From IMG/VR virus record IMGVR_UViG_2913112809_000005: a DNA stretch of 16,976 nucleotides; one strand, written 5' to 3'. Numbering within the stretch: the first letter of the stretch is position 1; the number at the start of each line of letters is the position of its first letter. Of the stretch, positions 1-16,976 are shown in pieces. This stretch comes from a virus. Lineage: Duplodnaviria; Heunggongvirae; Uroviricota; Caudoviricetes. Below the pieces are notes generated by a model that searched no databases, was not told the DNA's origin, and was given only the letters and a program-made list of their open reading frames with translations. The translations under genes and the position numbers were made by a program.

Positions 1-1047
1 TCAATCAAACCAATTGCTAATTACAGTTTCAAACTTGTGAGTGACTTGCCACCATAAATAATTTTCCATGACAAATTGTTTTCCGTGATGGGCAACACTA
101 AGTAAATCAGGATTGTTAAGTGTTTTTTCTATATCCACAGCAATTGTTTCGGGTGTCATCGGTTCTTGCAGGTGATAGCCAGTATCTTTATCTTTTACAA
201 ATTCTATCATTCCACCTCGAGTACTCACCAGTACAGGTTTACCTGCGCTCATAGCTTCTATTGCCACCATACAAAATGGCTCCTGAAATTGAGATGGAAT
301 AACAACTAAATCAGCTAAAGAATAATATTGATGCATTTCCTCAGGAGTGACACCTCCTAACATATGGCAGTGTGAACCTGGTTGTTTTGCTAATTCTCGA
401 ATTTTCTGTTGGTAAATTCCTTTTTCACCCTTACTTTTGCTCGCATAATCTCCGATAACAACCAGTTCTATATCATCACGGGTTCTGATGAGTAGTTCAA
501 ACGCTTGTAGAAGTAACATCAATCCTTTTTCAGGAGATATCCTTCCCGCATAAAATATAATCTTCTTGTCAGGGGGGATGTTCAGATCAGATCTGTTTAT
601 TTTGGCATGGTGCTTGTCCGTATTATATGGATCTGTTCCATTTGGAACTATAGCGATATCTGCATCAGGAAGAAGCCTTTGATAATAGTCTTTTAAATAG
701 TTACTGGGGACGAGCATTTTGACATTGACATCCATTCCTTTTGGCTCATAAGCGTTATGCATATGCATCACTATTTTTGCATGAGGTGAACGCTCACGAA
801 TCTGGCGATATAATTTCATGCTATTATGCACAACGATTACACTGTTATCCGTAATATTGAAATCGTTAGCGACATTCAAAATTCGTTGAGAATAAGGAAA
901 GGGATCTATACGCGTCAATTTCTGAAATATGCGTTTATAAATTCGACCGAATCCGATGCGATGAATTGAACATCGTTCACTGACAGTGGTGATATCAGAA
1001 TAACCTTCTTCTTTTATACAAACAATTCTATTCGGTATTCTTGTCAT
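1..1047 (-). CDS. Glycosyltransferase, GT-B fold, family 4 (group 1 glycosyltransferase); complete 348-aa ORF
   Basis: 348-aa ORF with stop at 1-3. C-terminal half has the E-x7-E signature of retaining GT4 enzymes (EPFCMVAIEAMSAGKPVL) and a GT-B nucleotide-sugar-binding layout. Gene is visibly AT-rich compared with the adjacent tail cluster. Confidence 0.75.
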   Translation of the reverse strand: MTRIPNRIVCIKEEGYSDITTVSERCSIHRIGFGRIYKRIFQKLTRIDPFPYSQRILNVANDFNITDNSVIVVHNSMKLYRQIRERSPHAKIVMHMHNAYEPKGMDVNVKMLVPSNYLKDYYQRLLPDADIAIVPNGTDPYNTDKHHAKINRSDLNIPPDKKIIFYAGRISPEKGLMLLLQAFELLIRTRDDIELVVIGDYASKSKGEKGIYQQKIRELAKQPGSHCHMLGGVTPEEMHQYYSLADLVVIPSQFQEPFCMVAIEAMSAGKPVLVSTRGGMIEFVKDKDTGYHLQEPMTPETIAVDIEKTLNNPDLLSVAHHGKQFVMENYLWWQVTHKFETVISNWFD

Positions 1048-1515: not shown

Positions 1516-1971
1516 TTACGGATGGGATTGCCAGCTACTTACTAAGGCATACAAGTGATTTGGTGAGTATCGCCAGCTATCTTTTAATTGCAGGAATTCA
1601 GCACAAAACTCACTGCAAAACAGGCGATCGCGCTGTTCTTTATTGCCGGTGATAATTCCTAAGGCTCCGCGCCAGTCATAGCGTTTGCCATCATGTTTAC
1701 GGAAAAAAGCTTCCACATCCTGAAGATTGGCCTGGAGCGGTAGCATATCCCACTTGTCTGGAGGTAATGGCATTATCTTTCCCCGAACGCCTCGATCGCG
1801 CAGAGATGCGGAGTAACAAAGGTAACTCTTTTCGCCATGTACTACGGCTAATTCACAGTGGGAATAACTACCACGTGTGATTTTGCGTGTAAGCCAGTCA
1901 GCCAGTCTCGCAATACCCCGGTGCTCTGTTCGGCCCTTATAACAAGCGAGCCAGACAGTGGTTTTACTCAT
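1516..1971 (-). CDS. YiiX/YaeF-family (DUF830) permuted papain-fold protein, putative amidase/peptidase; no signal peptide
   Basis: 151-aa ORF translationally coupled to the upstream fibre-chaperone gene (4-nt overlap). Has the His-then-Cys permuted order with motifs SYSHCELAV, GKRYDWRGA and LFCSEFCAEF, matching from memory the YSH, KPYDF and CSE motifs of E. coli YiiX/YaeF. Last gene before the operon terminator. Confidence 0.55.
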   Translation of the reverse strand: MSKTTVWLACYKGRTEHRGIARLADWLTRKITRGSYSHCELAVVHGEKSYLCYSASLRDRGVRGKIMPLPPDKWDMLPLQANLQDVEAFFRKHDGKRYDWRGALGIITGNKEQRDRLFCSEFCAEFLQLKDSWRYSPNHLYALVSSWQSHP

Positions 1972-2573
1972 GGTTGCCAGCCTGTGGAGTAATCGTAGTC
2001 GAGCACCGCCTGAATATCGTCCAGAGCTTCCACTGCTGCGATATGGCGCTGGGCGTTGGCGAACAAGCGCATATCGTGATCCATTGTTACCGATTCAAAC
2101 TGGGCAGCGATTTCGTTGGTTAACTCGATCAGACCGTGGTTTTTGGTCTGCCACATTAAACCTGCCGGGATCTGCTTCGCCAGGCCCATTTTGGTTAACG
2201 ACATCTGCTGGATACGGCTGTTTGTATCACTGTGGAAGTGATGGTTATTGATGATGATGTAGTCTACCGTTATTTCATCTCGTCGATTTTTTATTTCCTG
2301 TGTAACCTGGGTCTTGGTATTCTCTAGTGCAATGGTAAATAACGTTTTGTCATATACCCATTTATCATTCTCTAAGATATAAAAGTTATCCGGAGGTGGT
2401 GTGGTGATAATTTTGAATGGGTCAAGACATATCCAGCAGATATTATCCTTTAATTTCCATTGCTCATCATTTACTGGTATTACCGAGTCCAGTAACACAA
2501 CATTTAATAAAGAATCGTCTATCCAGTCAATAACTTCAAAAGTTACTGGATTGTAATATGCATATTGTGTCAT
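1968..2573 (-). CDS. Putative tail-fibre assembly/chaperone protein (position-based call; C-terminal half possibly DUF4376-like)
   Basis: 201-aa ORF starting 4 nt after the tail-fibre stop on the same strand, the canonical position for a fibre chaperone. 5' half is visibly AT-rich and 3' half GC-rich, suggesting mosaic origin. Confidence 0.45.
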   Translation of the reverse strand: MTQYAYYNPVTFEVIDWIDDSLLNVVLLDSVIPVNDEQWKLKDNICWICLDPFKIITTPPPDNFYILENDKWVYDKTLFTIALENTKTQVTQEIKNRRDEITVDYIIINNHHFHSDTNSRIQQMSLTKMGLAKQIPAGLMWQTKNHGLIELTNEIAAQFESVTMDHDMRLFANAQRHIAAVEALDDIQAVLDYDYSTGWQP

Positions 2574-2577
2574 ATTT

Positions 2578-4131
2578 TCACCATGATATTTTTACAAAGC
2601 CATCTGAGCCGCGTCCGCCGGAAAAAGATGCTGATGTTTGATTATTTGCTGCACTACCACCAGCACCACCGGCACCATAACCAACGGCATTACCTCCGTT
2701 AGAAAGGGCTAAACCAATCCCCCCTAGGCCATATAGTGAATTCATTCCATTCCCACCAGGAGCAGAGTGTTGGTCAACCATGGTATTCCCACTACCGTTT
2801 CCACCTGTTCCCCCGTAAGCTACGCTGTCAGCAAATGATGAGTTCCCGCCTTGCATGCCATCTGAGGCATGAACATTCCAAAGAATACCTCCAGTTGATC
2901 CCATCTTTGATTCTAATTTTCCCCCTTGACCACCTACACCTCCCGCTCCGACAGTGACAGCGTAATTTGTTCCTGGAATGACTGTGACTATTGATAATTT
3001 TGTTTCTCCGCATTGACCGCCAAAACCCTGCGTACTATATGGAAAACCAGAGTTGCCTTTTGCGTATCCACCGCCACCGCCACCGCCTCCGCCACCGAGC
3101 ATTTCTATAAAAAGTAAGGACACCCCATCAGGAACAGTAAACGTTCCATTGGTGGTAAAGAACTGGATGTGAGAATTCGTTGACCTACTATATGCAGCAT
3201 TAGCCTTATCTATTGCCGCCTTCACCGCGCTCGGTGTCGCCGCCTCCGTCGTACTGTTGCTATCCGTCGCGTTATTAAGCTTCACAATCCCTTTTTGTGT
3301 CAGGGTACCATCCGGAACACCCGTAATCTGTCCCCAGGGATGCGTATGACTACCCGCAGCTTTACTATTCGCCAGGTCATACGCCGCCTTAACCGCGCTC
3401 GGTGTTGCCGCCTCTGTCGTGCTGTTGCTATTGGTTGCGTTATTAAGCTTCACAATCCCTTTTTGCGTCAGCGTACTATCTGGTATATCAGTAATCTGAC
3501 TCCAGGTATGACGATGATTTCGAGCCTCAATCATTGCCGCTTTCACCGCTTTTGGCGTAGCCGCTTTGGTTTCGTCATCACTGTCAGTGGCGTTACTCAA
3601 CTGTGTAAAGCCTTTTTGCGTTAACGTAGCATCAGGATGATTAGTCGAACGCTCATGTTCATCCAGTTGTGAATCAACATAATCCCGTGTTGCCAGTACA
3701 ATACTGGGGTCAACGGTGAGTGTTACCGCAGCCGTGTTGGACACTTCCATAATGAGACGAATGCAAACTTGCTTACCGCAGCCGCCGGGTAATAGCGGTT
3801 TATACGATTCCGGGAATTTACCGATAGCGATCAATTCACCATCAGTATCATAAACGCCAACTTCACGTACATACCAGCCGCCGATATTTTCGGGCAGCAC
3901 GAGTTCCGCAATTAACCAGTTAGGGTTATTTGGTGCAACTGTTAATGTATTTAAATCACCGCGCCATACTTCATGGCGTAATTTAGTTTGGCTGACGGTG
4001 GGTTCATAATATTGTCCTCCGCTGTCGCCAACAGCCATTTTTTGTAGATGAAGCTGTTTTTTATCCGCCAGAGCATTGGCAATTTTTGCCATTCCCCTGT
4101 CGGTGAGTAGAGTATAAAACTCATTATCCAT
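2578..4131 (-). CDS. Tail fibre protein (P2 gpH-like N-terminal baseplate-attachment domain, tandem fibre repeats, glycine-rich C-terminal tip)
   Basis: 517-aa ORF. N-terminus (MAVGDSGGQYYEP...HEVWRGDL...IAELVLPENIGGWYVREVGVYD...ESYKP) matches the conserved P2 gpH / Mu S N-terminal domain. Three tandem repeats of TLTQKG(I/F)..L.NAT.S...EAATP.AVKAA follow. C-terminal about 180 aa is extremely Gly-rich, including a run of 10 Gly. Confidence 0.85.
   Translation of the reverse strand: MDNEFYTLLTDRGMAKIANALADKKQLHLQKMAVGDSGGQYYEPTVSQTKLRHEVWRGDLNTLTVAPNNPNWLIAELVLPENIGGWYVREVGVYDTDGELIAIGKFPESYKPLLPGGCGKQVCIRLIMEVSNTAAVTLTVDPSIVLATRDYVDSQLDEHERSTNHPDATLTQKGFTQLSNATDSDDETKAATPKAVKAAMIEARNHRHTWSQITDIPDSTLTQKGIVKLNNATNSNSTTEAATPSAVKAAYDLANSKAAGSHTHPWGQITGVPDGTLTQKGIVKLNNATDSNSTTEAATPSAVKAAIDKANAAYSRSTNSHIQFFTTNGTFTVPDGVSLLFIEMLGGGGGGGGGGYAKGNSGFPYSTQGFGGQCGETKLSIVTVIPGTNYAVTVGAGGVGGQGGKLESKMGSTGGILWNVHASDGMQGGNSSFADSVAYGGTGGNGSGNTMVDQHSAPGGNGMNSLYGLGGIGLALSNGGNAVGYGAGGAGGSAANNQTSASFSGGRGSDGFVKISW
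3068..3097 (-). repeat. Imperfect hexanucleotide (GGTGGC/CCGCCA)n tract encoding a Gly10 run inside the tail fibre gene
   Basis: Plus strand reads ccaccgccaccgccaccgcctccgccaccg; on the coding strand this is GGT GGC GGA GGC GGT GGC GGT GGC GGT GGA. Confidence 0.8.
3185..3640 (-). repeat. Three tandem, diverged 150-170 bp repeats inside the tail fibre gene (phage tail-fibre repeat units)
   Basis: Near-identical DNA blocks are visible (e.g. ccgcgctcggtgtcgccgcctccgtcgt...ttattaagcttcacaatccctttttgtgtcag versus ccgcgctcggtgttgccgcctctgtcgt...ttattaagcttcacaatccctttttgcgtcag). The protein shows three copies of the TLTQKG...EAATPSAVKAA unit. Confidence 0.8.
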
Positions 4132-4133
4132 AA

Positions 4134-4781
4134 TTACTCCGGGTAAATAGATGTAATTTCAAGGCTCCATTGCCCTGTTCCGTAATAAATCGATGTGTTG
4201 TGCTGTACTTCCCGTATCTGGAAAGGTAAAACCGTCGTCAGTTCACCACCATAAAGTGCACAGCCAATAACAGGAATAGCACTTTGGTTAATGATCCAGA
4301 CGATTAATGCTTCCAGTTTTGAACGTGTGTTTTTATATTCATGAATGAGTTCTACCAAATCATTGAAAAGGTTTTCATCCATACCTTTATCCACCAGCTC
4401 TATATCCACCTTAAAAAAATAAGCCCTTCCCCCATATTCAAACCATTCTGAAATAGTTCCGGGTAATGAGAGTATTTCCAGCACCCGCCGCACCGCCCAA
4501 ATTGTTCCTTTATATTTATGCAGTTCAATGGCTTGTTTAATTAACTCGCGTTTCTCCCGCTCATCGGTGGTAAATAACCAACCTTCCAGCCCCTGAACGT
4601 GAAATTGTTCTGCAAGGGCTGGTAATGCCGAAGCATCAACCAGGTCGACCAGATAAACCATCAACGCCGTCAGATCGAGTTGGGCAAAACGCTCGGCGGC
4701 GATGTTTGCCAGAATGGAAAAACGCTCATCGCTGGCAAGCGGCGGCGGTGGCAGCAATTTATCCATCGCTGACTCCGGCAA
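4134..4781 (-). CDS. Baseplate protein, P2 gpI family (Mu gp48-like)
   Basis: 215-aa ORF with the characteristic N-terminal LLPPP..S....LA motif of gpI-family proteins; sits between gpJ and the tail fibre. True start may be the internal Met at about 4766 (MDKLLPPPP), which would remove the overlap with gpJ. Confidence 0.8.
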   Translation of the reverse strand: MPESAMDKLLPPPPLASDERFSILANIAAERFAQLDLTALMVYLVDLVDASALPALAEQFHVQGLEGWLFTTDEREKRELIKQAIELHKYKGTIWAVRRVLEILSLPGTISEWFEYGGRAYFFKVDIELVDKGMDENLFNDLVELIHEYKNTRSKLEALIVWIINQSAIPVIGCALYGGELTTVLPFQIREVQHNTSIYYGTGQWSLEITSIYPE

Positions 4782-5874
4782 TCGTGACGTCTATTGCGGT
4801 GCATTCCGCCCACTCATGCGCCTGCAAAATACGTTTTGTAGGCATATTCAGCGCAACGTCATAGACGCCATCGACCTGTAACACTTTGATTATCTGGTTT
4901 GGCACAATGTCCTGCCCCAGATGTTTCTGCCGCTGTTGCGTCCAGAGGCTAATCGCTTTACGCGCCGCAGCCAGCGTTGTCTCCTGATCGGCGGTGGTAA
5001 ACAGCATTAGCTGCGCACGGATCTCATACGGCACTCGAAGAGCGCATTTCGCACTCACTTTGTCGGTCAGCGGACGTTTTTTCTCCTTGCTAACCTCCTG
5101 TTCAATTTGCGCGAGCAGTTCCACTCCCGGCAGACCATTCAGCGTTAGCGGGTAGATCTCCACGCAGCCTTCTGGCAATCCCTCGTCCGGCCCCAGTACT
5201 GAAACGTCAATAATCGACTGGCTAACAGAAAGCGTATGGAAGCGGTATGCGCCATAGCTGCCCGCATTACTAAAGCTTTCTGGTGCCAGTTGGATACGCT
5301 GGCGCAATGCGTCATCGCTCTCTTCACCGCAGCCGCCCGTTGACGCAGTCAGGTTGGTTACGTTGATGTCATAATGACCAATCCTGTCGACCAGTGCGCT
5401 AATTTGTGCAGGCTGCCAGCCGTTACCCTGTTCACCTGCTGCGAGGCTGGTGGCAGGAACGGCGATATGCAAACTCCTGGCCGGAAGCAGAACATCTTCA
5501 TCGGTGGCGAACATCACGCTATCAGAGGCACTGGCCCGCGTCCCCTGGGGAATCAGGATATTGCTGGTATACGCACTGACGACCGAAAACTGCAACGTCG
5601 TTTTTGCCGGTTGTGCAGGCAAACGGTGAACGCCCACCAGCTCCCCTAAATAATCCAGCATTGGCGCGCGGGAATACGCGACCAGGTTTTGTTTCGCCGC
5701 TTCCTGAATGGCGATGCGTACAAGGTTTTCACGATAGGCAAACAGGTCGATGAGCAACCGCTCAGCCTGTGCAGGATAGAGTTTTTTACCGCTGGCATCT
5801 TCGTATTGCGCAATCATCTCACTGGTAATTTGCGCTGGATCGCGGTCAATAAAATTGGGTTCGGCTATCGCCAT
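4759..5874 (-). CDS. Baseplate protein, gpJ family (Mu gp47-like, T4 gp6-like wedge)
   Basis: 371-aa ORF in the conserved position between gpW and gpI; size and order match Baseplate_J proteins; overlaps both neighbours in the operon. Confidence 0.8.
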   Translation of the reverse strand: MAIAEPNFIDRDPAQITSEMIAQYEDASGKKLYPAQAERLLIDLFAYRENLVRIAIQEAAKQNLVAYSRAPMLDYLGELVGVHRLPAQPAKTTLQFSVVSAYTSNILIPQGTRASASDSVMFATDEDVLLPARSLHIAVPATSLAAGEQGNGWQPAQISALVDRIGHYDINVTNLTASTGGCGEESDDALRQRIQLAPESFSNAGSYGAYRFHTLSVSQSIIDVSVLGPDEGLPEGCVEIYPLTLNGLPGVELLAQIEQEVSKEKKRPLTDKVSAKCALRVPYEIRAQLMLFTTADQETTLAAARKAISLWTQQRQKHLGQDIVPNQIIKVLQVDGVYDVALNMPTKRILQAHEWAECTAIDVTIAGVSDG

Positions 5875-6224
5875 AACACCTCCGTTGAGTTGATTACGCC
5901 GTCAGCGGCGCGCCATTGCACACGTAACGTCAGATGTTCACCGTCGATTACAGGTGTCACCTTCAGCAACCGACAGCGCGGTTCCCACTGGCGAATGGCT
6001 TCCACCGACTCCCGTACCACATGCGGGATTGCCCGCTCGATGGGGTAATCGATGTAGTGCCACAAATTGCTGCCAAACAGCGGTCTGTGGGGATCACTGC
6101 CGCGCGGTGTACGCAGAATGATGTGTATTGCCTGGTGAATATCATCCAGTCCGCAGACGTATTTTTCAGGCCGCTGCAAGGCCGGTTGCCAGTGCAGCGT
6201 TGAGGGTCGTGTTTTTGTGTTCAT
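5865..6224 (-). CDS. Baseplate protein, GPW/gp25 family
   Basis: 119-aa ORF of the size and position of P2 gpW / T4 gp25 / Mu gp46 homologues, between the spike and gpJ. Confidence 0.75.
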   Translation of the reverse strand: MNTKTRPSTLHWQPALQRPEKYVCGLDDIHQAIHIILRTPRGSDPHRPLFGSNLWHYIDYPIERAIPHVVRESVEAIRQWEPRCRLLKVTPVIDGEHLTLRVQWRAADGVINSTEVLWR

Positions 6225-6297
6225 GAGGGTATTTTCGCCCTGAACGGGCTGCGGGGATATTAAAGCGATTTAGAAAACTGATTGATTAAAAAGAGAA

Positions 6298-6317
6298 AAC
6301 CCGCCATCAGGCGGGTT
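6298..6317 (-). terminator. Intrinsic terminator/attenuator between gpV and gpW
   Basis: 8-bp GC-rich stem AACCCGCC-tgat-GGCGGGTT, 5 nt downstream (minus strand) of the gpV TGA stop at 6323-6325, followed on the minus strand by TTCTCTTTTTAATCAATCAGTTTTCT. Confidence 0.6.
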
Positions 6318-6322
6318 AAACG

Positions 6323-7024
6323 TCAGTGTGAATGGTGGTTGGAGTTGCCACCGCTGTCCTGCAATGCGCCGCTGGCCTGAACGTTGCCGATCACGTTGAC
6401 ATTGCCAGTTATTGTGGCGGCGTTACCGATGCCTCCACTTCCTGCCATCCCGCCAAGCCAGGTGAGTTTTTTCATTACCGTCACGTTACCAGTAAAGGTG
6501 CTCATGGGCGCATCTACCGTCACTGCTGCCGCTTTAACATCGACCTTAGTGGCGTCGATGCTGACATCGGTCGCTTTAACATCGACAGTATCGGAAGTCA
6601 CGATGACCTGTTGGGCTTTAATCTCAACGTTGGGCGATGTCAGGCTGGTACGGTCGATAACCTCAATCACGATTTTCTCGATACCGCCGTTAATCGTCAG
6701 CTGGTGCGTGCTGCGGTCATATTCAAACGCTGCGCCATCAGAAAACTGGACGTAACGTTTATCGCGCGAGGCCACAGGCGCGGTGTCAACCGTAGAATAA
6801 ACTGCGCCCAGCACCACGCCATCTTCACCGTTATTGTCCAGCAGAACTTCCACTTGCTCGCCCATATCCGGTAGCCAGTAGTCTTTATTGTCCTGGGAAT
6901 TGCGTTGAAGTACCGCAAGCCAGTTGCTCTTCAGATTGTCACACTCCGGAAGCGTGACTCGCACCCGAACGCTGGTTTCGTCAATATCGCTGATAATCCC
7001 CGTTTGCCGGGTTACTCCTTTCAT
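6323..7024 (-). CDS. Baseplate central spike, gpV family (Mu gp45-like), with His-rich C-terminal tip
   Basis: 233-aa ORF with an N-terminal OB-fold-like region and a C-terminal repetitive beta-helix-like segment (VDVKATDVSIDATKVDVKAAAVTVDA), ending ...GGNSNHHSH. AGGAGG RBS 7-12 nt upstream. Confidence 0.8.
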   Translation of the reverse strand: MKGVTRQTGIISDIDETSVRVRVTLPECDNLKSNWLAVLQRNSQDNKDYWLPDMGEQVEVLLDNNGEDGVVLGAVYSTVDTAPVASRDKRYVQFSDGAAFEYDRSTHQLTINGGIEKIVIEVIDRTSLTSPNVEIKAQQVIVTSDTVDVKATDVSIDATKVDVKAAAVTVDAPMSTFTGNVTVMKKLTWLGGMAGSGGIGNAATITGNVNVIGNVQASGALQDSGGNSNHHSH

Positions 7025-7033
7025 ATTTCCTCC

Positions 7034-8074
7034 TTACTGGCTGGTCGCTGGCCCGCGCGACACGTCGATTTCAGTGGTATAGCCGCTGCGCACAAAACTG
7101 TGAGTCGATTTATCAATCAGCCACTGACCGGAAAGCACGCCAAAATCGGTCAGTTCAATTTTATTGCCCGCCGTCAGATCCGGGCAGCCCATCATTGTGA
7201 GCGTTCCGGTTTGCTGATATTCGTTGTGGCTGTCGAGTGCAGCGTTGGCCTTTGCCTGTGCTGCGCCAACGTCCGTCGCCCGACTGTTCAGTTTTAGCGT
7301 GTCGGCACTGGTGCCGACTCCACGGGCAGACGGTTTTTGCTGGCTGTCGTGAGTGTAGATAACCAGTTCTTTTTTCTTACTATTTTGATGCTGTACGGTG
7401 GCGTTTTTGTAGATACGGTTAATGGTATCTTTGAAGGTGAAATGCGAAACGTCTTTGCGGTTGATCTTTTTAACCGACGCCAGGCAGCGCAGCGTGGGTA
7501 AATGCGAAAAAATCAGCTCTTTGGTGCTCACCTTTACTGCATAGCCATATTCGCAGGCCAGGCGCTTGAGAAATCCAACATCGGTTTCGCCGTACTGTGT
7601 CACCCGGTCAATCGTCAGCGGCTCGATTTTGCCCACCAGCTTTAGGCCGTGAGTTTGTGCGATACGGCTGGCGATAGCCGAAAGCGTCGTTTCTTCAAAA
7701 CCCTGGCTGTTACGGGTGCGCAGCGCCTGATTGACGGAAGTGGCGATGCCATCAATATTTACCGTAGAAGGTGGCGCTGAAATGTCGATTTTATCAATAA
7801 TATACTGACCACAATCGAGCAGCTTTTCCCCCTGATAACCCATATGCAGCGCCAGCGTATCGCCTTTGCCGGGATACCACTCTTTTATCCAGCGTCCATC
7901 AGTGTCATCCAGTGTAATTGCGATGGTATCTGACTCGTTTTTGATGCTGTCGTGGTAACTGATGCTGGTGACATAGGGTGTGATGTCATAAGTGATATCT
8001 TTATGCCCATACCAGAGGGTAAAAATGGGCGTGAGTGTGGCAAAGACGCCACCAGTTACGCTTATCTCAGCCAT
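7034..8074 (-). CDS. Baseplate hub protein, P2 gpD family (late control gene D protein; Mu gp44-like)
   Basis: 346-aa ORF of the size and position of gpD/gp27-like hub proteins, directly before the spike. Confidence 0.8.
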   Translation of the reverse strand: MAEISVTGGVFATLTPIFTLWYGHKDITYDITPYVTSISYHDSIKNESDTIAITLDDTDGRWIKEWYPGKGDTLALHMGYQGEKLLDCGQYIIDKIDISAPPSTVNIDGIATSVNQALRTRNSQGFEETTLSAIASRIAQTHGLKLVGKIEPLTIDRVTQYGETDVGFLKRLACEYGYAVKVSTKELIFSHLPTLRCLASVKKINRKDVSHFTFKDTINRIYKNATVQHQNSKKKELVIYTHDSQQKPSARGVGTSADTLKLNSRATDVGAAQAKANAALDSHNEYQQTGTLTMMGCPDLTAGNKIELTDFGVLSGQWLIDKSTHSFVRSGYTTEIDVSRGPATSQ

Positions 8075-8274
8075 GGTGGGATCTCCGATAAGGTTTTATT
8101 GACGGAAATGACCGGAATAATGAGCTGAATACCGGAAGGCAGCACCGGGTAAATGGCGACATGTGGATTGGCGGCGATTATGCGTTCATAAGCCAGCGCA
8201 TCACCGTAGTAATGCCATGCCAGATTATCCCAGCGTTCGCTGTCGGTGGTGATATGTTCAAGGTATCGCATCAC
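8062..8274 (-). CDS. Tail protein X (P2 gpX family, LysM-like)
   Basis: 70-aa ORF containing the conserved gpX motif (WD.LA..YYGD....E.II.ANP); ATGA-type overlap with the upstream gpU-like gene. Confidence 0.75.
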   Translation of the reverse strand: MMRYLEHITTDSERWDNLAWHYYGDALAYERIIAANPHVAIYPVLPSGIQLIIPVISVNKTLSEIPPWLR

Positions 8275-9224
8275 CAGCTCCTCGTAATGGTCGCGGCAGC
8301 AAACTGGCTCACTGTGGGAGTGGTTTGTTGTACCGTTGTTCGTGCCTGATCAACCAACGTTGCGGCTTTATCGAACGTCGCTTGGGCGATGCCGCTGGTA
8401 ATGTCGTCGAAAAGCGCCTGAGCATGGTCAACCAGCGTACTGGCGTCATTGGCGCAGTCCCGGATACCTGGCATGTTACCCAGTAAAGCTTTAATCTGCG
8501 CCGACAACGCTTTTGGGAGTCCTGCCAGCGTTTGCAGATCCGTTGGCTGTTTAAACAGGGTTTCGATGGCGTCGATTGTCTTTTTCAATGACGTAATTAT
8601 CTTTTCACACTTTTCTTTTAACGCTTTGGCCTCTTTAATCATTGCTTTCACTTTTGCCACCGTTTTTTTAATATCTTCAATGGCTTGTGTCAGTTCATCC
8701 AGCATCTCTTTGGCCTTACGCATACCTTCTTCAATGGCGTTTAATATCTGATCAAACCAGGACTCCACCATGTCGGGAAAATTGCTCGCCTTTTCCTCAA
8801 TGTTAGGCTCCTGGGTGGTAATCGCCGGAGGTAAAAGTGGATTTTTAGGATCGCCGGTGTACTCCTGGAGCGACATCGTTCCGTTTTGGGCAATCACATT
8901 GCCCCAGGGATCGGTGTGCTGGTGGGTGGCGGTTAGCTCTGTAATTACAAACCAGCCGCGATAATCGCCATTGCCAAATACCAGTGCCATCGCCTTGTGA
9001 GCAAGCATGGCTTCACGCAGTCGATTCAGCTCTGTTGTGGGCTGGCAAAACTGGCTGTGCAGGGAAAATTCCAGCGCCAGTATATCCAGCTTATCGCCAA
9101 TAAACTGCACGCCGGGCTTGCCTTCTATACGGGCATGTGTGGCGTAATCCACGCCCATTGTGCTTTTAAAGCCGTCCCAGAATGTGACAACCTTAAATTC
9201 AATCTCTCCTAAAACGGCATACAT
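8271..9224 (-). CDS. gpU-like tail protein with a roughly 175-aa C-terminal alpha-helical/coiled-coil extension
   Basis: 317-aa ORF. First about 140 aa follow the P2 gpU pattern (M..LG...F......F..........G.P..QF.G...D...L...L......L..L...........G.G...G.FVITEL). The remainder is Lys/Glu/Ala-rich with heptad-like periodicity (KAKEMLDELTQAIEDIKKTVAKVKAMIKEAKALKEKCEKI...). Stop/start overlaps the tape measure gene. Confidence 0.7.
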   Translation of the reverse strand: MYAVLGEIEFKVVTFWDGFKSTMGVDYATHARIEGKPGVQFIGDKLDILALEFSLHSQFCQPTTELNRLREAMLAHKAMALVFGNGDYRGWFVITELTATHQHTDPWGNVIAQNGTMSLQEYTGDPKNPLLPPAITTQEPNIEEKASNFPDMVESWFDQILNAIEEGMRKAKEMLDELTQAIEDIKKTVAKVKAMIKEAKALKEKCEKIITSLKKTIDAIETLFKQPTDLQTLAGLPKALSAQIKALLGNMPGIRDCANDASTLVDHAQALFDDITSGIAQATFDKAATLVDQARTTVQQTTPTVSQFAAATITRSW

Positions 9225-11584: not shown

Positions 11585-11675
11585 AATTGTTTCTCTTTAA
11601 TTATTGATAATGGCCCACTGGTTATTTTTCTAAAAAAGGGGCTGGGAAGAAATAAACCTGGCGGGCTTTGAAGAA

Positions 11676-11698
11676 CTCGCAGACATCAGGTCTGCGAG
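11676..11698 (-). other. Strong stem-loop in the gpE-tape measure intergenic region
   Basis: Perfect 9-bp inverted repeat CTCGCAGAC-atcag-GTCTGCGAG; on the minus strand it encloses the stop codon (11686-11688) of the +1 frame that overlaps the 3' end of the gpE gene. Confidence 0.6.
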
Positions 11699-11773
11699 CC
11701 ATATTCGATCTTTATTTGGTCGCTGGCTTCATCCAGCCAGTTGCTAAAGTCATCTATGGTGAGCGCGTCTATC

Positions 11774-12091
11774 TCACTGGGTGGAAAGCGAAACCATCTC
11801 GCCAGTAGCGCCATTGCCTGCCATAGCTGGGGAGGATTCTGTAACCACGGTAAGCATGGATTGAAATCGTTTCTGCAATGCCTGGTAATCCAGCAAATCC
11901 ATTTCAGCTAAATCTTCTGGCACCAGTCCGGTCATCGCCGCCATTAGCGGTTCATCCCACTCTTCGGGTTTTTCGCTGATCCGGCGCGCGTTGCGCATAT
12001 CTTTTACTTTCAGGCGACGTAATTGCAGCGAGTCGATAGTATTTCCTGCTGCCGACGTAAATGGGAACTGTAAGATATAATGCTCTTTCAT
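11774..12091 (-). CDS. Tail assembly chaperone, P2 gpE family
   Basis: 105-aa acidic ORF between the tube and tape measure genes, the conserved position of the frameshifted chaperone pair. An alternative reading frame stays open past its stop (see findings). Confidence 0.7.
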   Translation of the reverse strand: MKEHYILQFPFTSAAGNTIDSLQLRRLKVKDMRNARRISEKPEEWDEPLMAAMTGLVPEDLAEMDLLDYQALQKRFQSMLTVVTESSPAMAGNGATGEMVSLSTQ

Positions 12092-12117
12092 TTTGTATCC
12101 TTATTTATGTTGCGAAG

Positions 12118-12137
12118 TTCGGGGCCGTAGCCCCGAA
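12118..12137 (-). other. Stem-loop immediately downstream of the tail tube gene
   Basis: 8-bp GC-rich inverted repeat TTCGGGGC-cgta-GCCCCGAA between the tube stop (12141-12143) and the gpE start (12091); no clear U-tract follows, so more likely an mRNA-processing/stability or partial-attenuation element than a full terminator. Confidence 0.45.
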
Positions 12138-12140
12138 TAA

Positions 12141-12665
12141 TTAGCCACCGATGTTATTGCGATAGGTACTTAATTGATCCACGCCGTTAACCCGAAAAAT
12201 ATTCGCCATATAATCAAGTTCAAGCAGCGTTTCACCATCGACCACTTGCTTAATATAAGTACAGCCAAAGGCGCTGCTGAATTCCGGGTTTTCATTCTGT
12301 TTAAATGTGCCCAGTGGATTCTTTTTAAACATCACGGTTAAATGTGTCACTAACGCTAATTGATTCGCTTTCCCCTGGGAGTTATAGCAATCAATACTGG
12401 AGCGGCACTGTAATGCTACCGCCTGCCACGGGTTTGCCGTTTTACGCATTACGTCCTGATAAAAGGAGTTCCATTTAATTTCCCCCTCCAGTTTATCGAA
12501 ACCAGCCGGGAGTTCGATTTTGCCGACCATACCCAGTGCCTTATGCTCTTGCATAATTAAACTGACATCAGGCAATTTAATTTCGGTTGCACGACCTAAA
12601 AGGTTATTACCATCGAGATAAATATTGGCGTTGGTAATACGGTTAATTTGAATTTTTCCAGCCAT
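12141..12665 (-). CDS. Tail tube protein (P2 FII family)
   Basis: 174-aa ORF; size and N-terminal pattern (N.N.YLDG...LG...EIKLP) match FII-type tube proteins; start overlaps the sheath stop. Confidence 0.8.
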   Translation of the reverse strand: MAGKIQINRITNANIYLDGNNLLGRATEIKLPDVSLIMQEHKALGMVGKIELPAGFDKLEGEIKWNSFYQDVMRKTANPWQAVALQCRSSIDCYNSQGKANQLALVTHLTVMFKKNPLGTFKQNENPEFSSAFGCTYIKQVVDGETLLELDYMANIFRVNGVDQLSTYRNNIGG

Positions 12666-14095
12666 TAGCTATTGCTCTCCAGAGAGACTAAATATTCAGA
12701 AGTAATTTCAGTTTCAAACGTCAGACGTTCCAGCGGCGGCGGCGGGGTGAATTTATAGCTCAGCAATAAATGACCGGCGCTGAGTTCAGCCGGTGAATTT
12801 CGTGCCGGATCGTACCAGCACTCAAAGCCAAGCAGTGCGCCGTCGGCAATTAGTTTTCGGCCCCAGGTATTTACCGATTCGGTCAGTGCGTCAATAATTG
12901 CCTGATTAATAGGCATATCAATATACTGCTGACTGAAATAACGGATTGACTCATTGATTACATCGCCTGTCCGGCGGACGTTTTCAAAGTTACGCATATG
13001 GGTCACGGTAGGCCATGCCGCTGTGCGGTTACCCCACAAGCGCAGACCAGAACCGTAACTATTGAAAATAGTGGTAATGCCGTTTTCGTTGAGCTGATTC
13101 ACTTCGCTTTGTGGATCATCAATCATTGCGGAAAGCGAACGTTCAATACCGGTAATACCCTGAATTTCCTGGTTTGAGTTGCTCCACCAGAAACCTTTTT
13201 CGAGGTCTACTTTGGCACGTAGCCCGGCAGCGCGCGAAGAGAGTGGTTCGAGAACTTCCTGGTTAGTGATGCCATCGTAAACTTTGACGTGTGGGTAACA
13301 TAAACGCACACGATCAGAGCTGGTATTGAAGTTGATAGCCCCTTGCGAACCGCGTCCAGCCAATACCTGCTGGAATGTCGTCCCAATCGGAGCATCAATG
13401 TAGGTAATCGCACCGAGTTTTTCCGCTTGTGCAATCAGCTCAGTAGTTACTGATTTTTGCGTACAAAACACGGGAGCAAGCAGGATTTTGGCGTAGAAAC
13501 CGTACAGGTTATAGGTGTCCTGAAGGAGTTTCATCCCCGTGCGGTCGCCTGCGGTATTTAGGGCACCGATAATATCGGCTGCGGTGACCTTTGTAGGGTC
13601 GCACCAGGAATAATAGGCGCAAACTTTCGCTCCAGGAGGAATGTCGGCTCCTTTACGAGTGATTATGCCTGTTTGTTCATCTACGCTAAATGCTGTGGTG
13701 TTAAAGGTTGATGAATTTGATGAAGAGGGCTTTAGTACCACGTTACGCACATTGCGGTGAGCGAGCTTCGCCTGGTTGTTAGCATCAAAAGTGATACTCT
13801 CATTGCTGATGCTGGAGCTATGTTTTGCCGGATCCAGCACGTTAATCACCACCACCGTACCGGCACCGTGGTCATAAATCGCCTTCAGTGCCTGTGGGAT
13901 CGTAAAGTTAGCCAGAGTCGAGCCAAACTGCGCAGCATCGCTTTCAGAAAGACATAATGTTGGTTTATTTACCGGACCACAGGGGGCCGTACCGATTAAA
14001 GCGATGACGGCGGATTTTACCGCTTTAACCGGACGAGGGCCGGTTTCAATTTCAATGGTTTCTACACCGTGCAGGTAATTAGCTGCCATGTACAA
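12665..14095 (-). CDS. Contractile tail sheath protein
   Basis: 476-aa ORF directly upstream of the tube gene; size and position are typical of myovirus sheath proteins (P2 FI / Mu L class). Confidence 0.85.
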   Translation of the reverse strand: MYMAANYLHGVETIEIETGPRPVKAVKSAVIALIGTAPCGPVNKPTLCLSESDAAQFGSTLANFTIPQALKAIYDHGAGTVVVINVLDPAKHSSSISNESITFDANNQAKLAHRNVRNVVLKPSSSNSSTFNTTAFSVDEQTGIITRKGADIPPGAKVCAYYSWCDPTKVTAADIIGALNTAGDRTGMKLLQDTYNLYGFYAKILLAPVFCTQKSVTTELIAQAEKLGAITYIDAPIGTTFQQVLAGRGSQGAINFNTSSDRVRLCYPHVKVYDGITNQEVLEPLSSRAAGLRAKVDLEKGFWWSNSNQEIQGITGIERSLSAMIDDPQSEVNQLNENGITTIFNSYGSGLRLWGNRTAAWPTVTHMRNFENVRRTGDVINESIRYFSQQYIDMPINQAIIDALTESVNTWGRKLIADGALLGFECWYDPARNSPAELSAGHLLLSYKFTPPPPLERLTFETEITSEYLVSLESNS

Positions 14096-14276
14096 TTTCC
14101 TCTACGTTATTTTGTTCTTCCTGAGTGATGACAGGAGTCAGATGATTGCGGGCAATCATGGTTATGACCCACTCGTTGTCTTCTGGCAGATCAATTTCAC
14201 TGTTCGGCCACAATAAGATTTCTTGTCCGTCGGCAAGGGTGACGCCGCTTGCCGGGCCGTTGTAGATGTATTTCAT
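14079..14276 (-). CDS. Small conserved tail-region protein (Mu gp38-like position)
   Basis: 65-aa ORF, coupled by a 4-nt overlap to the upstream gene and overlapping the sheath start. Confidence 0.45.
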   Translation of the reverse strand: MKYIYNGPASGVTLADGQEILLWPNSEIDLPEDNEWVITMIARNHLTPVITQEEQNNVEEIVHGS

Positions 14277-14728
14277 TCAGTTTCCTCGTAATTAACTTCC
14301 GTAAGCAGGGGAAGATCCGTGCTTTCCTGTTCAGCGATAAACAGCGAGCTGGTCGCCATTTCCAGGATGTAGCGGCAGAAACCGCCGCTCTCACCCGTAT
14401 TAATTTCTTTTTCAAGCCAAAGCAGACGATCGCAATCAGGAAGCTGAAGGCCACCCAATGCTCTGCGTATGCGATCAAGAGCGTTTAACGCGTCACAATT
14501 TTTGCCAACAATAACGGTGGCGGTTAAGCGGAGTATTTGCTGTTGCACGATGGCATCACTGCTTTCGGGCGTGGCAAAGAAAGAACCGCTATAATTAATA
14601 ATCACTGCAACTTGCTGTGTCTGTGGAATATATTTCTGGGCATCCGTAGCTGAAATAAATACGTCCATTTCGGGGTTGTGTTCACGTAATCTGGTCACAA
14701 CAGAATTCATTACAGATAAAATTTCCAT
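14273..14728 (-). CDS. Putative tail completion/terminator-type protein (Mu gp37 / DUF1834-like); first gene of the tail operon
   Basis: 151-aa ORF with an AGG-containing RBS upstream; position and N-terminal pattern (ME.L..M...VV.RL) recall Mu gp37-family proteins. Functional call is tentative. Confidence 0.45.
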   Translation of the reverse strand: MEILSVMNSVVTRLREHNPEMDVFISATDAQKYIPQTQQVAVIINYSGSFFATPESSDAIVQQQILRLTATVIVGKNCDALNALDRIRRALGGLQLPDCDRLLWLEKEINTGESGGFCRYILEMATSSLFIAEQESTDLPLLTEVNYEETE

Positions 14729-14842
14729 ATGGGTTGTACCTTAATTACCGCTCACTTCGTTATCGTTGAAATATATTCTGAAGCAGTGAAGGTGAAGAAT
14801 CTTTTAATGTAATTTAGAGAAAAAATTGAATGGCTATAAAAA

Positions 14843-14870
14843 ATCCCCACACTTACGTAAAGGTGGGGAT
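14843..14870 (-). terminator. Intrinsic terminator after the lysis cassette (potentially bidirectional)
   Basis: 8-bp stem ATCCCCAC...GTGGGGAT with an internally palindromic loop, beginning 4 nt after the TAA stop at 14875-14877; followed on the minus strand by TTTTTATAGCC and on the plus strand by GTATTTAATA. Confidence 0.7.
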
Positions 14871-14874
14871 GTAT

Positions 14875-15189
14875 TTAATAGCTGCCACGTTGTAACAGCT
14901 CGATTTTGCTATATAAGGCATCCAGCTTTGCTTCTAATACTGCTTGCCCACGAAGATAATCTTCTCTGCGGACATAATGCAGCGGAAGCTCGGCACGAAA
15001 TTCAAGAAACTCTCTTTCCAGTTTCGACCAACTTGTTTCTGATTCCCTGCGGGCATTTTCCAGAGACTCAAAACGCTCATTAAGTCGTTTTTCAATTTGC
15101 GCTAACAGCAGTTTTCCGGCAGCAAACATTAATCCAACGAAGGAAAGCATAAGGGAGATCACTTCCCAAAAATCGATACTGAGTTTCAT
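14875..15189 (-). CDS. Membrane-anchored coiled-coil protein, candidate spanin-like/lysis accessory protein
   Basis: 104-aa ORF with one N-terminal hydrophobic helix (FWEVISLMLSFVGLMFAAGKLLL) followed by a charged helical region; GAGGGG RBS; directly downstream of the lysin gene. Confidence 0.45.
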   Translation of the reverse strand: MKLSIDFWEVISLMLSFVGLMFAAGKLLLAQIEKRLNERFESLENARRESETSWSKLEREFLEFRAELPLHYVRREDYLRGQAVLEAKLDALYSKIELLQRGSY

Positions 15190-15201
15190 CGGCCCCTCTG
15201 A

Positions 15202-15807
15202 TTAGTGAAGACAGCTTGCCTGTCCCCAGAGTAAATAGCGGGCGGCGTGTAGATAGAGGATCATCTTTGGATAGCGACGATTTTCTCGCCAGTTAGCAGC
15301 GCTGCGCCCGGCGTTGACTCGCTCGACATGACCAAACCAGCTAGTGGCATCTAACCCTTTGGATGCAGCTAGTTTTTTATCCCGGTTAACCCACCCCTGA
15401 CCGCCGTTATAGGCGCTTAGGGTAAACGCCATACGCTGACAGTCATTTTTCGCAGAGATGTTTTTCCACAAATGCTGGTCATATTGCACCAGCGCGCGAA
15501 TCGCCCAGGTTGGGTTATACGGTTTGTTTTCACGCAATTGTGGATACAACTGGCTTATCCATGTCGCTGTAGCAGGCATAAATTGCGCCATACCTTGTGC
15601 GCCAACGGGGGAACGTACCATTGGCTGCCAGGCGGACTCCAGGTGTAATTGCCCGGCAAAGTCGGCCACTGGGGCATTCAGCCCCCAGACTTCTCGAGCG
15701 GTACGAATTAGTTCGTTTCGCCATGCCAGAGAGGCTCGCGGCGGTTCAGAGGCGTTAAGCGGGAAAAGAACGAAAATAATCATAGACGCGATATATTTCA
15801 GCCACAT
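15202..15807 (-). CDS. Lytic transglycosylase (SLT domain) lysin with N-terminal signal/SAR-like hydrophobic leader
   Basis: SLT catalytic motifs LHLESAWQP and AQGMAQFMP. Best start is ATG at 15807 (MWLKYIASMIIFVLFPLNA...), 2 nt after the stop of the upstream membrane-protein gene; the longer ORF to 15885 would overlap that gene by 76 nt. Confidence 0.7.
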   Translation of the reverse strand: MWLKYIASMIIFVLFPLNASEPPRASLAWRNELIRTAREVWGLNAPVADFAGQLHLESAWQPMVRSPVGAQGMAQFMPATATWISQLYPQLRENKPYNPTWAIRALVQYDQHLWKNISAKNDCQRMAFTLSAYNGGQGWVNRDKKLAASKGLDATSWFGHVERVNAGRSAANWRENRRYPKMILYLHAARYLLWGQASCLH

Positions 15808-15809
15808 CA

Positions 15810-16097
15810 CTATAGCCCTAAGGCGACGGAAAGACAGACGGCGGCAACGATGATGGCGCGGCGAATCATTGCCGCCGCGCAGCAACGCGGTTCCTTCCAG
15901 GGGCTAAAAGAGTCAGGCCGTGCCCAGGGGAACAAACTGCGATCGAGCCAGTATCCCAGCACCGCGGAAAGCGAAACCAGGCTTAGTTTATAAATGACGA
16001 CCGGGATCTGTGCTGAAGAGGTCCAGCCGATCACGACAAACAGCGCGACGGAAGCGACCAGCCAGCCGGAAAGCCGGGGAAAAGTGACTTTTTTCAT
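15810..16097 (-). CDS. Small membrane protein with 2-3 transmembrane segments, holin candidate
   Basis: 95-aa ORF with AGGAG RBS 8 nt upstream of the ATG; hydrophobic segments LVASVALFVVIGW, IPVVIYKLSLVSLSAVLGYWL and AIIVAAVCLSVALGL; first gene of the lysis cassette, directly before the lysin. Confidence 0.5.
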   Translation of the reverse strand: MKKVTFPRLSGWLVASVALFVVIGWTSSAQIPVVIYKLSLVSLSAVLGYWLDRSLFPWARPDSFSPWKEPRCCAAAMIRRAIIVAAVCLSVALGL

Positions 16098-16393
16098 ACG
16101 ATATCTCCTGATAAGTGAGCGTTTAGTGTCGTCAGAACCCTCCAGTGAAGAATGAAAAAAGCTTTAATAAATAAGTTTAAAAAATAGATTCTCTATAAAT
16201 GAACAAGCCCGCTAATAAATCGACTCATCAATTAAAGAGCAAAAGGTGACCTGGCGAATAAGCGCGTCATTATGCAGGGGAAAGATGATGGTGGATCGTA
16301 GGAATAGTCTATAGTTATTTGATTTTTAAAGTTTGTTTAAGAAAGTCAGCTACTGTGAGGGAAACGATCTTTTAACACTACAGGTAAAAATAA

Positions 16394-16413
16394 TACTGTA
16401 TACGTATACAGTA
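16394..16413. promoter_or_regulatory. LexA (SOS) box, near consensus
   Basis: TACTGTATACGTATACAGTA, a perfect CTGT-N8-ACAG palindrome matching the gammaproteobacterial LexA consensus TACTGTATATATATACAGTA at 18 of 20 positions. Lies in the divergent intergenic region; a TTGACA hexamer sits 21 bp to its right (16435-16440) and a TATTAT hexamer overlaps its left end on the minus strand. Confidence 0.7.
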
Positions 16414-16634
16414 TAGTGTAAAATGATACTCCTGTTGACAAGAAACATAATGCAAACAATATATTTATTTCGTGAATTTATGGCGTTCATTAATACTAAA
16501 AATTTATATTTTGGGTGATTATTTATTTGTTTGTTGAATGTATTGAGTAGCAGTAATGACAACTGCTTAGCGTATATCCGTGGTTTTACACGCATCGGGT
16601 CTTATTCAGGATGCAAGATATATGGAGATGAAAA

Positions 16635-16976
16635 ATGATACGAAAATCAAAAGAGATGGCCCGGACACCGGAGATTATTAACGACCTGGCTTTTCATGCA
16701 TCGCAAGTTCTGATTGAAAGCATCATTCTCGACAGTTCATCGGCAGAAAATGTGGGTTTTGCCATTGCCGACCGAATGATGCGTAACTGGGGCGGACAAA
16801 GCATCTATTTCCCTAAGGGGATCTCCGGACGAGCATCGGAGCGTGACTACCAAATCTATAGCGAGTGCGATGGGCGCAACTACGCTGAATTAGCGAAGAA
16901 ATATAATCTGACGCTGCAATGGATTTATAAGATAGTCAAACGTGTACATACGGAGAAGCAGCAGAGTCGTATGTAG
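16635..16976 (+). CDS. Mor/C-family transcription activator (phage Mu middle/late activator family)
   Basis: 113-aa ORF with GGAG RBS. C-terminal region (GGQSIYFPKG...ERDYQIY.ECDGRNYAELAKKYNLTLQWIYKIVKRV) closely parallels the Mu Mor/C DNA-binding region (GGGQVYIPRG...RDLRIWNDFNGRNVSELTTRYGVTFNTVYKAIRRM). Complete ORF ending with TAG at the window edge. Confidence 0.7.
   Translation: MIRKSKEMARTPEIINDLAFHASQVLIESIILDSSSAENVGFAIADRMMRNWGGQSIYFPKGISGRASERDYQIYSECDGRNYAELAKKYNLTLQWIYKIVKRVHTEKQQSRM

Follow-up and report, generated by a model that had tools for sequence, protein, structure and literature searches.

Does a contractile-tail gene cluster that is filed as a virus belong to a phage, or has it become a device of the bacterium that carries it? 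The question is raised by IMG/VR record IMGVR_UViG_2913112809_000005 (Caudoviricetes), a stretch of 16,976 nt referred to here as the window, in which phage tail and cell lysis genes are accompanied by mor, the gene of a Mor/C-family transcription activator. Judging from its sequence, this 15.5-kb chromosomal cluster is very probably an R-type tailocin (phage-tail bacteriocin) of Escherichia and Salmonella. In full, and with a probability that we put at about three in four, a BcepMu-like transposable myovirus that lost its head has been domesticated here, fixed between the host genes yjbD and lysC, and serves as an SOS-inducible R-type tailocin. It retains two lysis genes, mor and the whole of a contractile tail, a LexA box adjoins mor, and the element is a further member of a well-known type of system rather than a new type. 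An initial annotation of the window had proposed a tailocin, and that proposal is supported by the headless layout between core genes, by purifying selection and by a LexA box conserved beside mor.

Open reading frames (ORFs) were assigned with Pfam profiles and, for many genes, with PHROG families (Table 1). Between positions 1516 and 16097 every long ORF lies on the minus strand with gaps of no more than about 150 nt, and mor alone is divergent, on the plus strand. Pfam recognized a complete contractile-tail set, namely sheath, tube, chaperone, tape measure, hub, spike, wedge, fibre and fibre chaperone, and every gene named in the initial annotation was found in its place. No ORF of the window matched a capsid, portal, terminase, protease or scaffold family in Pfam or PHROG, in agreement with the earlier statement that no head genes lie between the lysis genes and the tail genes. 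The same searches found in no cluster ORF the AAA+ ATPase, tail-cap or payload toxin domains of Afp/PVC-type extracellular contractile injection systems (eCIS).

The chromosomal setting was read from the source contig (PDHY01000043.1, assembly GCA_004745255.1, 92 kb), located through exact matches of the fibre and Mor proteins. Directly beyond mor this contig continues into lysC, pgi, yjbE-H, yjbT, psiE, malG and malF; beyond the last cluster gene, which encodes a 151-aa protein (p151), it continues into a GT4 glycosyltransferase gene, yjbD, rluF and a sorbose phosphotransferase system operon. In K-12 the site is empty, with yjbD and lysC as neighbours 252 nt apart, and homology between the source and K-12 ends 43 nt past yjbD and restarts at the lysC stop codon. 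No attachment-site (att) repeats, tRNA gene or integrase gene was found at the island ends or in the window. The same bounded headless layout is present in E. coli D6, where the cluster is 97% identical, and in Salmonella Infantis.

Among true phages, the closest are transposable myoviruses of the BcepMu type (BcepMu, phiE255, Escherichia phage PhiKM and Klebsiella phage KP12), whose sheaths are 71-74% identical to that of the window. Bcepmuvirus has colinear homologues for 16 genes, including mor, the holin, the SLT-type endolysin, gp25, gp37 and gp38; the whole tail module is colinear, and mor is likewise divergent from the late genes. On the BcepMu map mor corresponds to gp01, the holin to gp21, the endolysin to gp22, a 104-aa protein to gp25, and the tail genes run from gp37, gp38 and the sheath (gp39) through to the fibre (gp52). 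Bcepmuvirus has, and the window lacks, gp02-gp20 (GemA, transposase A/B, repressor and early genes), gp23/24 (the Rz/Rz1 spanin) and gp26-gp36 (gp26, TerS, TerL, portal, F, G, protease/scaffold, capsid, gp35 and adaptor), whereas the LexA box beside mor is absent from Bcepmuvirus and was gained. The initial annotation had described a mosaic of a Mu activator with a P2-Mu tail; this had to be abandoned, as colinear mapping shows the order to be the native BcepMu-like design with deletions. A functional BcepMu-like prophage was rejected as well, because transposase A/B and the head/packaging module are absent from both the window and its flanks.

The same mapping revised the lysis cassette, which had been given three genes. 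The holin and the SLT endolysin stand, the latter with a hydrophobic, signal-like N-terminus (MWLKYIASMIIFVLFPLNA), but the third gene (14875-15189) encodes the homologue of BcepMu gp25. In this 104-aa protein, which lacks cysteine, a single membrane segment at the N-terminus is accompanied by a coiled coil; no lipobox or lipoprotein ORF of an Rz/Rz1 spanin is embedded in or adjoins its gene. Its identity as a spanin was rejected on these grounds and because it maps to gp25 rather than to Rz.

An orthologous element lies in Salmonella enterica (STM4198-STM4219), likewise next to lysC (STM4220), with the same flanks, the same deletions and proteins 62-96% identical to those of the window. Its fibre tip and cargo genes differ from those of the window and, unlike the window, it carries the O-antigen glucosylation operon gtrABC (STM4204-4206) between gpV and gpW. 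A scan of one genome per species found this lysC-linked headless layout also in Superficieibacter electus, Superficieibacter sp. and Phytobacter massiliensis, and tblastn with the head and transposase proteins of BcepMu and PhiKM was negative in all lysC-linked loci. The core of the element (gpI to mor, at least 80%) was present in 191 of 5,426 complete E. coli genomes, 95-97% identical and always as a single chromosomal copy. The comparison of presence and absence across relatives that the initial annotation had called for thus places a headless element by lysC in four genera. Between the window and Salmonella Infantis, the ratio of nonsynonymous to synonymous substitution rates (dN/dS) was 0.04-0.25 at a dS of 0.6-1.9 in the 17 genes with usable dS, and no stop codon interrupts any Infantis orthologue, mor included. 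Since the window and Salmonella share site and deletions, this divergence built up in the headless state, and the element is under long-term purifying selection. Such selection, together with a LexA box beside mor in four genera, fits a chain that leads from DNA damage through an activator to lysis and tail genes.

Variation is seen in the fibre, in which residues 1-195 are about 99% identical to those of E. coli D6, the two fibres differ by one repeat unit and the tip is strongly diverged from about residue 320. Among the 5,426 E. coli genomes, the best match to the window below about position 3214 reaches 82-88% identity with patchy coverage, and nothing matches positions 1-1492.

The holin and mor are separated by an A/T-rich spacer of 537 nt, in which just two islands are conserved across the four genera: the LexA box TACTGTATACGTATACAGTA with the adjoining GTGTAAAATG, and a 23-mer at 16163-16185. 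A Mor/C activator next to a LexA box had been reported at the outset, and both halves of that statement stood. The Mor domain is full length, C-terminal helix-turn-helix included (PF08765 positions 2-103 of 107, 127.7 bits against a cut-off of 24.9), and the box keeps its position in six aligned lysC-linked loci (the source window, E. coli D6, Salmonella, two Superficieibacter and Phytobacter), with the perfect consensus ACTGTATATATATACAGT in Salmonella. About five one-mismatch LexA-type sites are expected by chance in the window, so that a single LexA site is weak proof by itself; what counts is that six loci of four genera keep it in the same place. No LexA box was found in the BcepMu, PhiKM, Pectobacterium, Brenneria, Lonsdalea, Samsonia or Chromobacterium loci. 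Within GTGTAAAATG, the hexamer TAAAAT (16419-16424) is a plausible candidate for the -10 element of a promoter directed towards mor, with the LexA box lying over its -35 and spacer region. A promoter on the minus strand that overlaps the LexA box and drives the lysis genes directly was set aside, as its hexamers are not conserved and the plus-strand GTGTAAAATG is.

A 14-nt inverted repeat (ATCTTTTAACACTA / TAGTGTAAAATGAT) at 16367-16380 and 16414-16427 flanks the LexA box. Its right arm coincides with the invariant GTGTAAAATG, and its left arm is kept in Escherichia, partly in Salmonella and Phytobacter, and not in Superficieibacter. A small gene or RNA in the spacer was rejected, there being no conserved ORF, indels that are not multiples of three and no Rfam match.

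The 23-mer occurs once in the window even when up to three mismatches are allowed (chance expectation 0) and is restricted to lysC-linked loci. The elements located 5' of the holin gene, gp37 and gpW resemble one another and are A/T-rich, and two of these three promoter-like elements, those of gp37 and gpW, sit after conserved terminator-like hairpins. This arrangement suggests three late units driven by Mor, comprising the lysis genes, gp37 to gpV, and gpW to p151. In Mu, the late promoters depend on the activator C.

We propose a mechanism in which DNA damage would activate RecA and thereby provoke self-cleavage of LexA, as is established. The loss of LexA from the strong palindromic box at 16394-16413, which overlaps the candidate mor promoter, would then, judging by position and conservation, allow mor to be transcribed. 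By analogy with Mor and C of Mu, and given their conservation, the A/T-rich elements 5' of the holin gene, gp37 and gpW would be the three late promoters that Mor switches on. The units gp37-gpV and gpW-p151, whose gene content was directly observed, would make the particle, which would comprise a baseplate of hub (gpD), spike (gpV) and wedge (gpW/J/I), the fibre and the DUF4376 protein as its chaperone, a tube templated by the tape measure, the sheath and the completion proteins gp37 and gp38. The producer would be lysed by the holin and the signal-bearing SLT endolysin, freeing the particles. As in R2 pyocin and carotovoricin, the fibre tip would dock on the receptor of a related strain, the sheath would contract, spike and tube would pierce the envelope and the cell would die, with a killing spectrum probably set by the variable glycine-rich fibre tip.

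Table 1. Genes and candidate regulatory elements of the cluster, from mor to the distal end (positions in the window; E, expectation value).
Feature	Position	Strand	Evidence
mor, Mor/C-family late transcription activator	16635..16976	+	PF08765 E 2e-37; 48% identical to BcepMu gp01; phrog_532 'late transcriptional activator'
Invariant GTGTAAAATG	16416..16425	+	Directly 3' of LexA box; unchanged in six loci of four genera, flanking spacer diverged
LexA (SOS) box TACTGTATACGTATACAGTA	16394..16413		Perfect palindrome, 18/20 consensus positions; sole exact CTGT-N8-ACAG in window
Invariant 23-mer TTTAATAAATAA(G/C)TTTAAAAAAT	16163..16185	-	66-88 nt 5' of holin start; candidate Mor-dependent late promoter 1
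Holin	15810..16097	-	PF13272 E 4e-27; phrog_1528 holin; BcepMu gp21 homologue
SLT-type lytic transglycosylase endolysin, 201 aa from ATG at 15807	15202..15807	-	PF01464 E 8e-14; 56-65% identical to BcepMu gp22 and PhiKM endolysin
104-aa membrane-anchored coiled-coil protein, BcepMu gp25 homologue	14875..15189	-	tblastn 46-50% to BcepMu gp25 and PhiKM 34040-34366 gene; phrog_462
Terminator-like hairpin ATCCCCAC...GTGGGGAT with T-run	14836..14870	-	3' of lysis unit; hairpin conserved in four genera
Conserved element TTTTTTCTCTAAATTACATTAAAAG	14801..14826	-	5' of gp37; six-locus alignment block; candidate late promoter 2
Gp37-family protein, first gene of tail unit	14273..14728	-	PF09646 E 1.5e-35; 5' of the sheath gene, as in BcepMu
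gp38 homologue, 65 aa	14079..14276	-	phrog_895; tblastn to BcepMu gp38 and PhiKM gene
Tail sheath, 474 aa	12665..14089	-	PF04984 and PF17482; 71-74% identical to BcepMu/PhiKM sheaths
Tail tube	12141..12665	-	PF04985 E 4e-56
Tail assembly chaperone (11774-12091) and overlapping 42-codon ORF (11686-11814, +1 frame)	11686..12091	-	PF10109; overlapping ORF annotated on source contig
Tape measure protein, 786 aa	9224..11584	-	PF10145
gpU-domain tail protein, coiled-coil C-terminal half	8271..9224	-	PF06995 E 1e-33; phrog_788
Tail protein X	8062..8271	-	PF05489
gpD-type baseplate hub	7034..8074	-	PF05954
gpV-type spike, His-rich C-terminal tip (…NHHSH)	6323..7024	-	PF04717; tip from translation
Terminator-like hairpin AACCCGCC…GGCGGGTT with T-run	6298..6317	-	gpV-gpW gap; 8 pairs, 6 G-C; conserved in Escherichia and Superficieibacter
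Conserved element GTTTTCTAAATCGCTTTAATATC	6256..6278	-	5' of gpW; all six loci, including Salmonella 3' of gtr insertion; candidate late promoter 3
gpW/gp25 baseplate wedge	5865..6224	-	PF04965
gpJ baseplate wedge	4759..5874	-	PF04865 E 3e-62
gpI baseplate protein, 210 aa	4134..4766	-	PF09684
Tail fibre: N-terminal collar, Phage_fiber_2 repeats, glycine-rich tip	2578..4131	-	PF12571, PF03406, PF21722
DUF4376 protein	1968..2573	-	PF14301; phrog_1807 and phrog_2837, both tail
151-aa conserved protein (p151), last cluster gene, STM4198 homologue	1516..1971	-	80-94% identical in Salmonella and E. coli D6; dN/dS 0.09

Among the individual products, the Gp37-family protein is probably a tail-completion protein or terminator ring; the crystal structure of its Salmonella homologue, PDB 2GJV, has six chains. 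Of the proteins with a solved structure, the R2 pyocin sheath PA0622 is the best match to the sheath (E 2e-45). The chaperone gene and its overlapping ORF possibly encode a two-product chaperone, and the DUF4376 protein is probably a fibre assembly chaperone. For p151 no match was obtained in Pfam, NCBIfam or PDB. Its conserved His-Cys (SHCEL) and FCSEFC motifs give a hint of a cysteine peptidase-like fold, and a single-sequence AlphaFold model of it (mean predicted local distance difference test, pLDDT, 48.7) is too poor to judge.

At its distal end the element carries variable cargo. In the window, positions 1-1047 (minus strand) hold a complete 348-aa GT4 glycosyltransferase gene (Glycos_transf_1, GT4-conflict family) with a G+C content of 0.38, which together with 1048-1515 fills the slot between the cluster and yjbD; the same slot is occupied by slipin and nucleotidyltransferase genes in E. 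coli D6 and by acetyltransferase and sugar-transport genes in Salmonella. A role of the cargo genes in a defence system was considered and dropped, as PADLOC gave no match. Surface-glycan enzymes in or next to the cluster comprise the GT4 enzyme here, gtrABC inside the cluster of Salmonella and, at the corresponding end of BcepMu, an acyltransferase. In Salmonella Infantis gtrABC takes the equivalent of the window gap 6225-6322, past the position of the terminator hairpin and ahead of the promoter-like element of gpW.

Compared with E. coli D6, the source has 94.0% identity in both flanks and 97.1% in the island core, but lysC reaches just 84%. It probably represents an Escherichia lineage other than E. 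coli, and the island, perhaps with lysC, seems to have moved from one lineage to another by exchange. Related DNA is also found under other labels. Short, unannotated GenBank records such as OR845313, OR851066 and OR850896 ('Escherichia phage ECO95 1-6-1', 'Salmonella phage S.Kent 1-2-1' and others) contain tail-cluster fragments at 75-88% DNA identity, so that host tailocin-locus DNA is being deposited as phage sequence. Two Arthrobacter sp. assemblies include short low-coverage contigs with sheath fragments 82-85% identical to the enterobacterial sheath of the window, most likely through assembly contamination.

Several observations weigh against a functional tailocin. In E. coli the element is patchily distributed (3.5%); insertion sequences (IS) interrupt some of the copies there and one is cut down to mor, holin and SLT, so not every carrier is expected to be functional. 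The insertion sequences that break some copies, including that of the reference strain IAI39 (NC_011750.1), belong to the ISL3 family. To the same side belong the gtrABC insertion inside the Salmonella cluster, a third gene of the lysis unit (the gp25 homologue) that has no assigned role, and the lack of a spanin, which the phage relatives and the carotovoricin loci retain and which leaves the breach of the outer membrane without explanation. In the tail assembly chaperone gene the second frame is +1 where -1 is usual, the -1 frame soon meets a stop and the search for a slippery site found none, so that a two-product chaperone would need a +1 or -2 shift. The direction of the LexA-controlled promoter and the Mor binding sites are putative, and a promoter scan found promoter-like hexamers on the minus strand of the window too. 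Lastly, literature searches found no report of particles, induction or killing from the lysC-linked lineage.

Nor did these searches find a treatment of STM4198-STM4219 or of the yjbD-lysC element as a tailocin; a 2026 survey of type VI secretion systems in Salmonella put aside unnamed 'tailocin/phage loci' without analysing them. Identity with the published 'tailocin' of ST131 was rejected, since that one is a complete P2-like prophage with pyocin gene order.

It is unlikely that the element, although selected, serves a purpose other than that of a bacteriocin, whether altruistic lysis in the SOS response with release of DNA or goods, donation of tails to head-only elements, or eCIS-like action on eukaryotic cells. 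Such a role would suit a lysis unit that is a separate and first transcription unit and the one E. coli genome in which mor, holin and SLT alone are kept. However, purifying selection extends beyond the lysis genes to all tail, baseplate and fibre genes, and phage-type fibre repeats with a diversified tip are typical of strain-specific receptor binding. Deletion of the head-tail adaptor gp36 speaks against capsid docking, eCIS payload toxin, AAA+ ATPase and cap genes were not found by Pfam, and the nearest characterized relative is a bacteriocin (PMC11974492).

Still less probable is an inert, decaying prophage remnant whose tail genes have simply not yet been damaged and from which nothing is made. 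The absence of the island from most E. coli genomes, the copies that are truncated or carry IS elements and the missing spanin would all be compatible with decay, and annotation pipelines label such regions incomplete prophages. Decay does not, however, account for one chromosomal site and one headless layout common to four genera, for the dN/dS values given above in every measurable gene at near-saturated dS with no stop codon, or for regulatory motifs that stay unchanged within diverged spacers; moreover, the head and transposition modules are precisely what the deletions took, and nothing else. The alternative offered by the initial annotation, one arm of an intact prophage with head genes beyond mor, can be dismissed, for although the window ends exactly at the mor stop codon and is therefore insufficient by itself, inspection of the source contig, the very check that the annotation had suggested, found the lysC-pgi-yjbEFGH-psiE-malGF side and the yjbD-rluF-sorbose operon side both matching the K-12 gene order around the empty site.

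The tailocin reading is thus preferred, and a bolder version of it has two parts. In the first, a functional tailocin has been overlooked in Salmonella (including LT2-type strains) and in a minority of Escherichia, having lost its head independently of carotovoricin and with host LexA in place of the phage repressor upstream of Mor; in the second, which is the bolder and more speculative half, linked glycan enzymes alter the producer's own receptor and so provide self-immunity. Taken together we regard the two as doubtful, if conceivable. If the element is active, E. coli relatives and Salmonella, including everyday laboratory strains, would contain an unrecognized SOS-induced device for killing and lysis that could affect strain competition in the gut and confound experiments with mitomycin or fluoroquinolones, and that would offer a native enterobacterial tailocin chassis with a naturally exchangeable fibre tip.

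Among known systems, the R2-type pyocin of Pseudomonas aeruginosa resembles the chain proposed here, in that RecA-dependent removal of a repressor frees an activator of lysis genes and a headless contractile tail. It is derived from P2, with baseplate and fibre genes ahead of sheath and tube, uses PrtR/PrtN instead of LexA/Mor and occupies another locus. Within the BcepMu-like family, headless derivatives that keep the transposase (73-81% identical to the phage transposase) occur in Brenneria, with a Mor-like gene upstream, and in Lonsdalea, where a Mor match was not detected in the fetched stretches; in Chromobacterium a headless locus has mor directly 5' of gp37, and lysis genes were not detected. 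The placement of these three in separate clades indicates that head loss is recurrent in this phage family; at least four further losses can be compared.

The closest characterized relative is carotovoricin Er (Ctv) of Pectobacterium, an R-type tailocin that is experimentally established and induced by DNA damage (PMC11974492; PMC13195805; PMC6963963), with induction by DNA-damaging agents credited to Itoh 1980 (as cited in PMC6963963). Like the window element it is a headless BcepMu-type derivative, chromosomal and vertically conserved. It shares with the window the order holin, SLT endolysin, gp25 homologue, gp37, gp38, sheath, tube and on to the fibre, with identities of 55% for the holin, 57-62% for SLT, 66% for the gp25 homologue, 75-76% for the sheath and 76% for the tube. 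Its induction reportedly requires RdgB, a Mor-like activator. Carotovoricin switches fibres by DNA inversion; no DNA invertase was found in the window element. Ctv has several transcription units (Yamada 2006, as cited in PMC13195805), and the 2006 paper assigns it an ancestor shared with 'a Salmonella typhi prophage'.

The two elements differ in their place on the chromosome, the window element lying between yjbD and lysC and Ctv between the prtDEF/tolC_2 type I secretion system (T1SS) and ybiB, in accordance with published positions from tolC_2 to ybiB (PMC13195805) and adjacent to prtDEF (PMC6963963). The Pectobacterium loci recovered in our scan lie directly 3' of the serralysin T1SS outer-membrane gene, which identifies them as the Ctv locus, and have the order holin, SLT, Rz, gp25 homologue, a 136-aa ORF, gp37 and the other tail genes, with no head genes. 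Unlike the window, Ctv keeps Rz and an extra 136-aa ORF, and has neither mor within 10 kb nor a LexA box. In a bootstrapped neighbour-joining tree of sheath, tube and gpD (200 replicates), the lysC-linked group and the Ctv group were each monophyletic in 200/200 replicates. An exclusive clade of the two was recovered in 0/200, and in 200/200 Ctv joined complete BcepMu-like phages of enterobacteria in a group that left out the lysC-linked loci. Descent from one headless ancestor shared with Ctv was rejected on these bootstraps, and the grouping indicates that the head was lost in the lysC-linked lineage independently of Ctv. The locus would offer a clean case of a transposable phage pared to a weapon and rewired to host LexA: it would work like carotovoricin, but was domesticated separately, at a locus of its own, with a LexA box and without a spanin.

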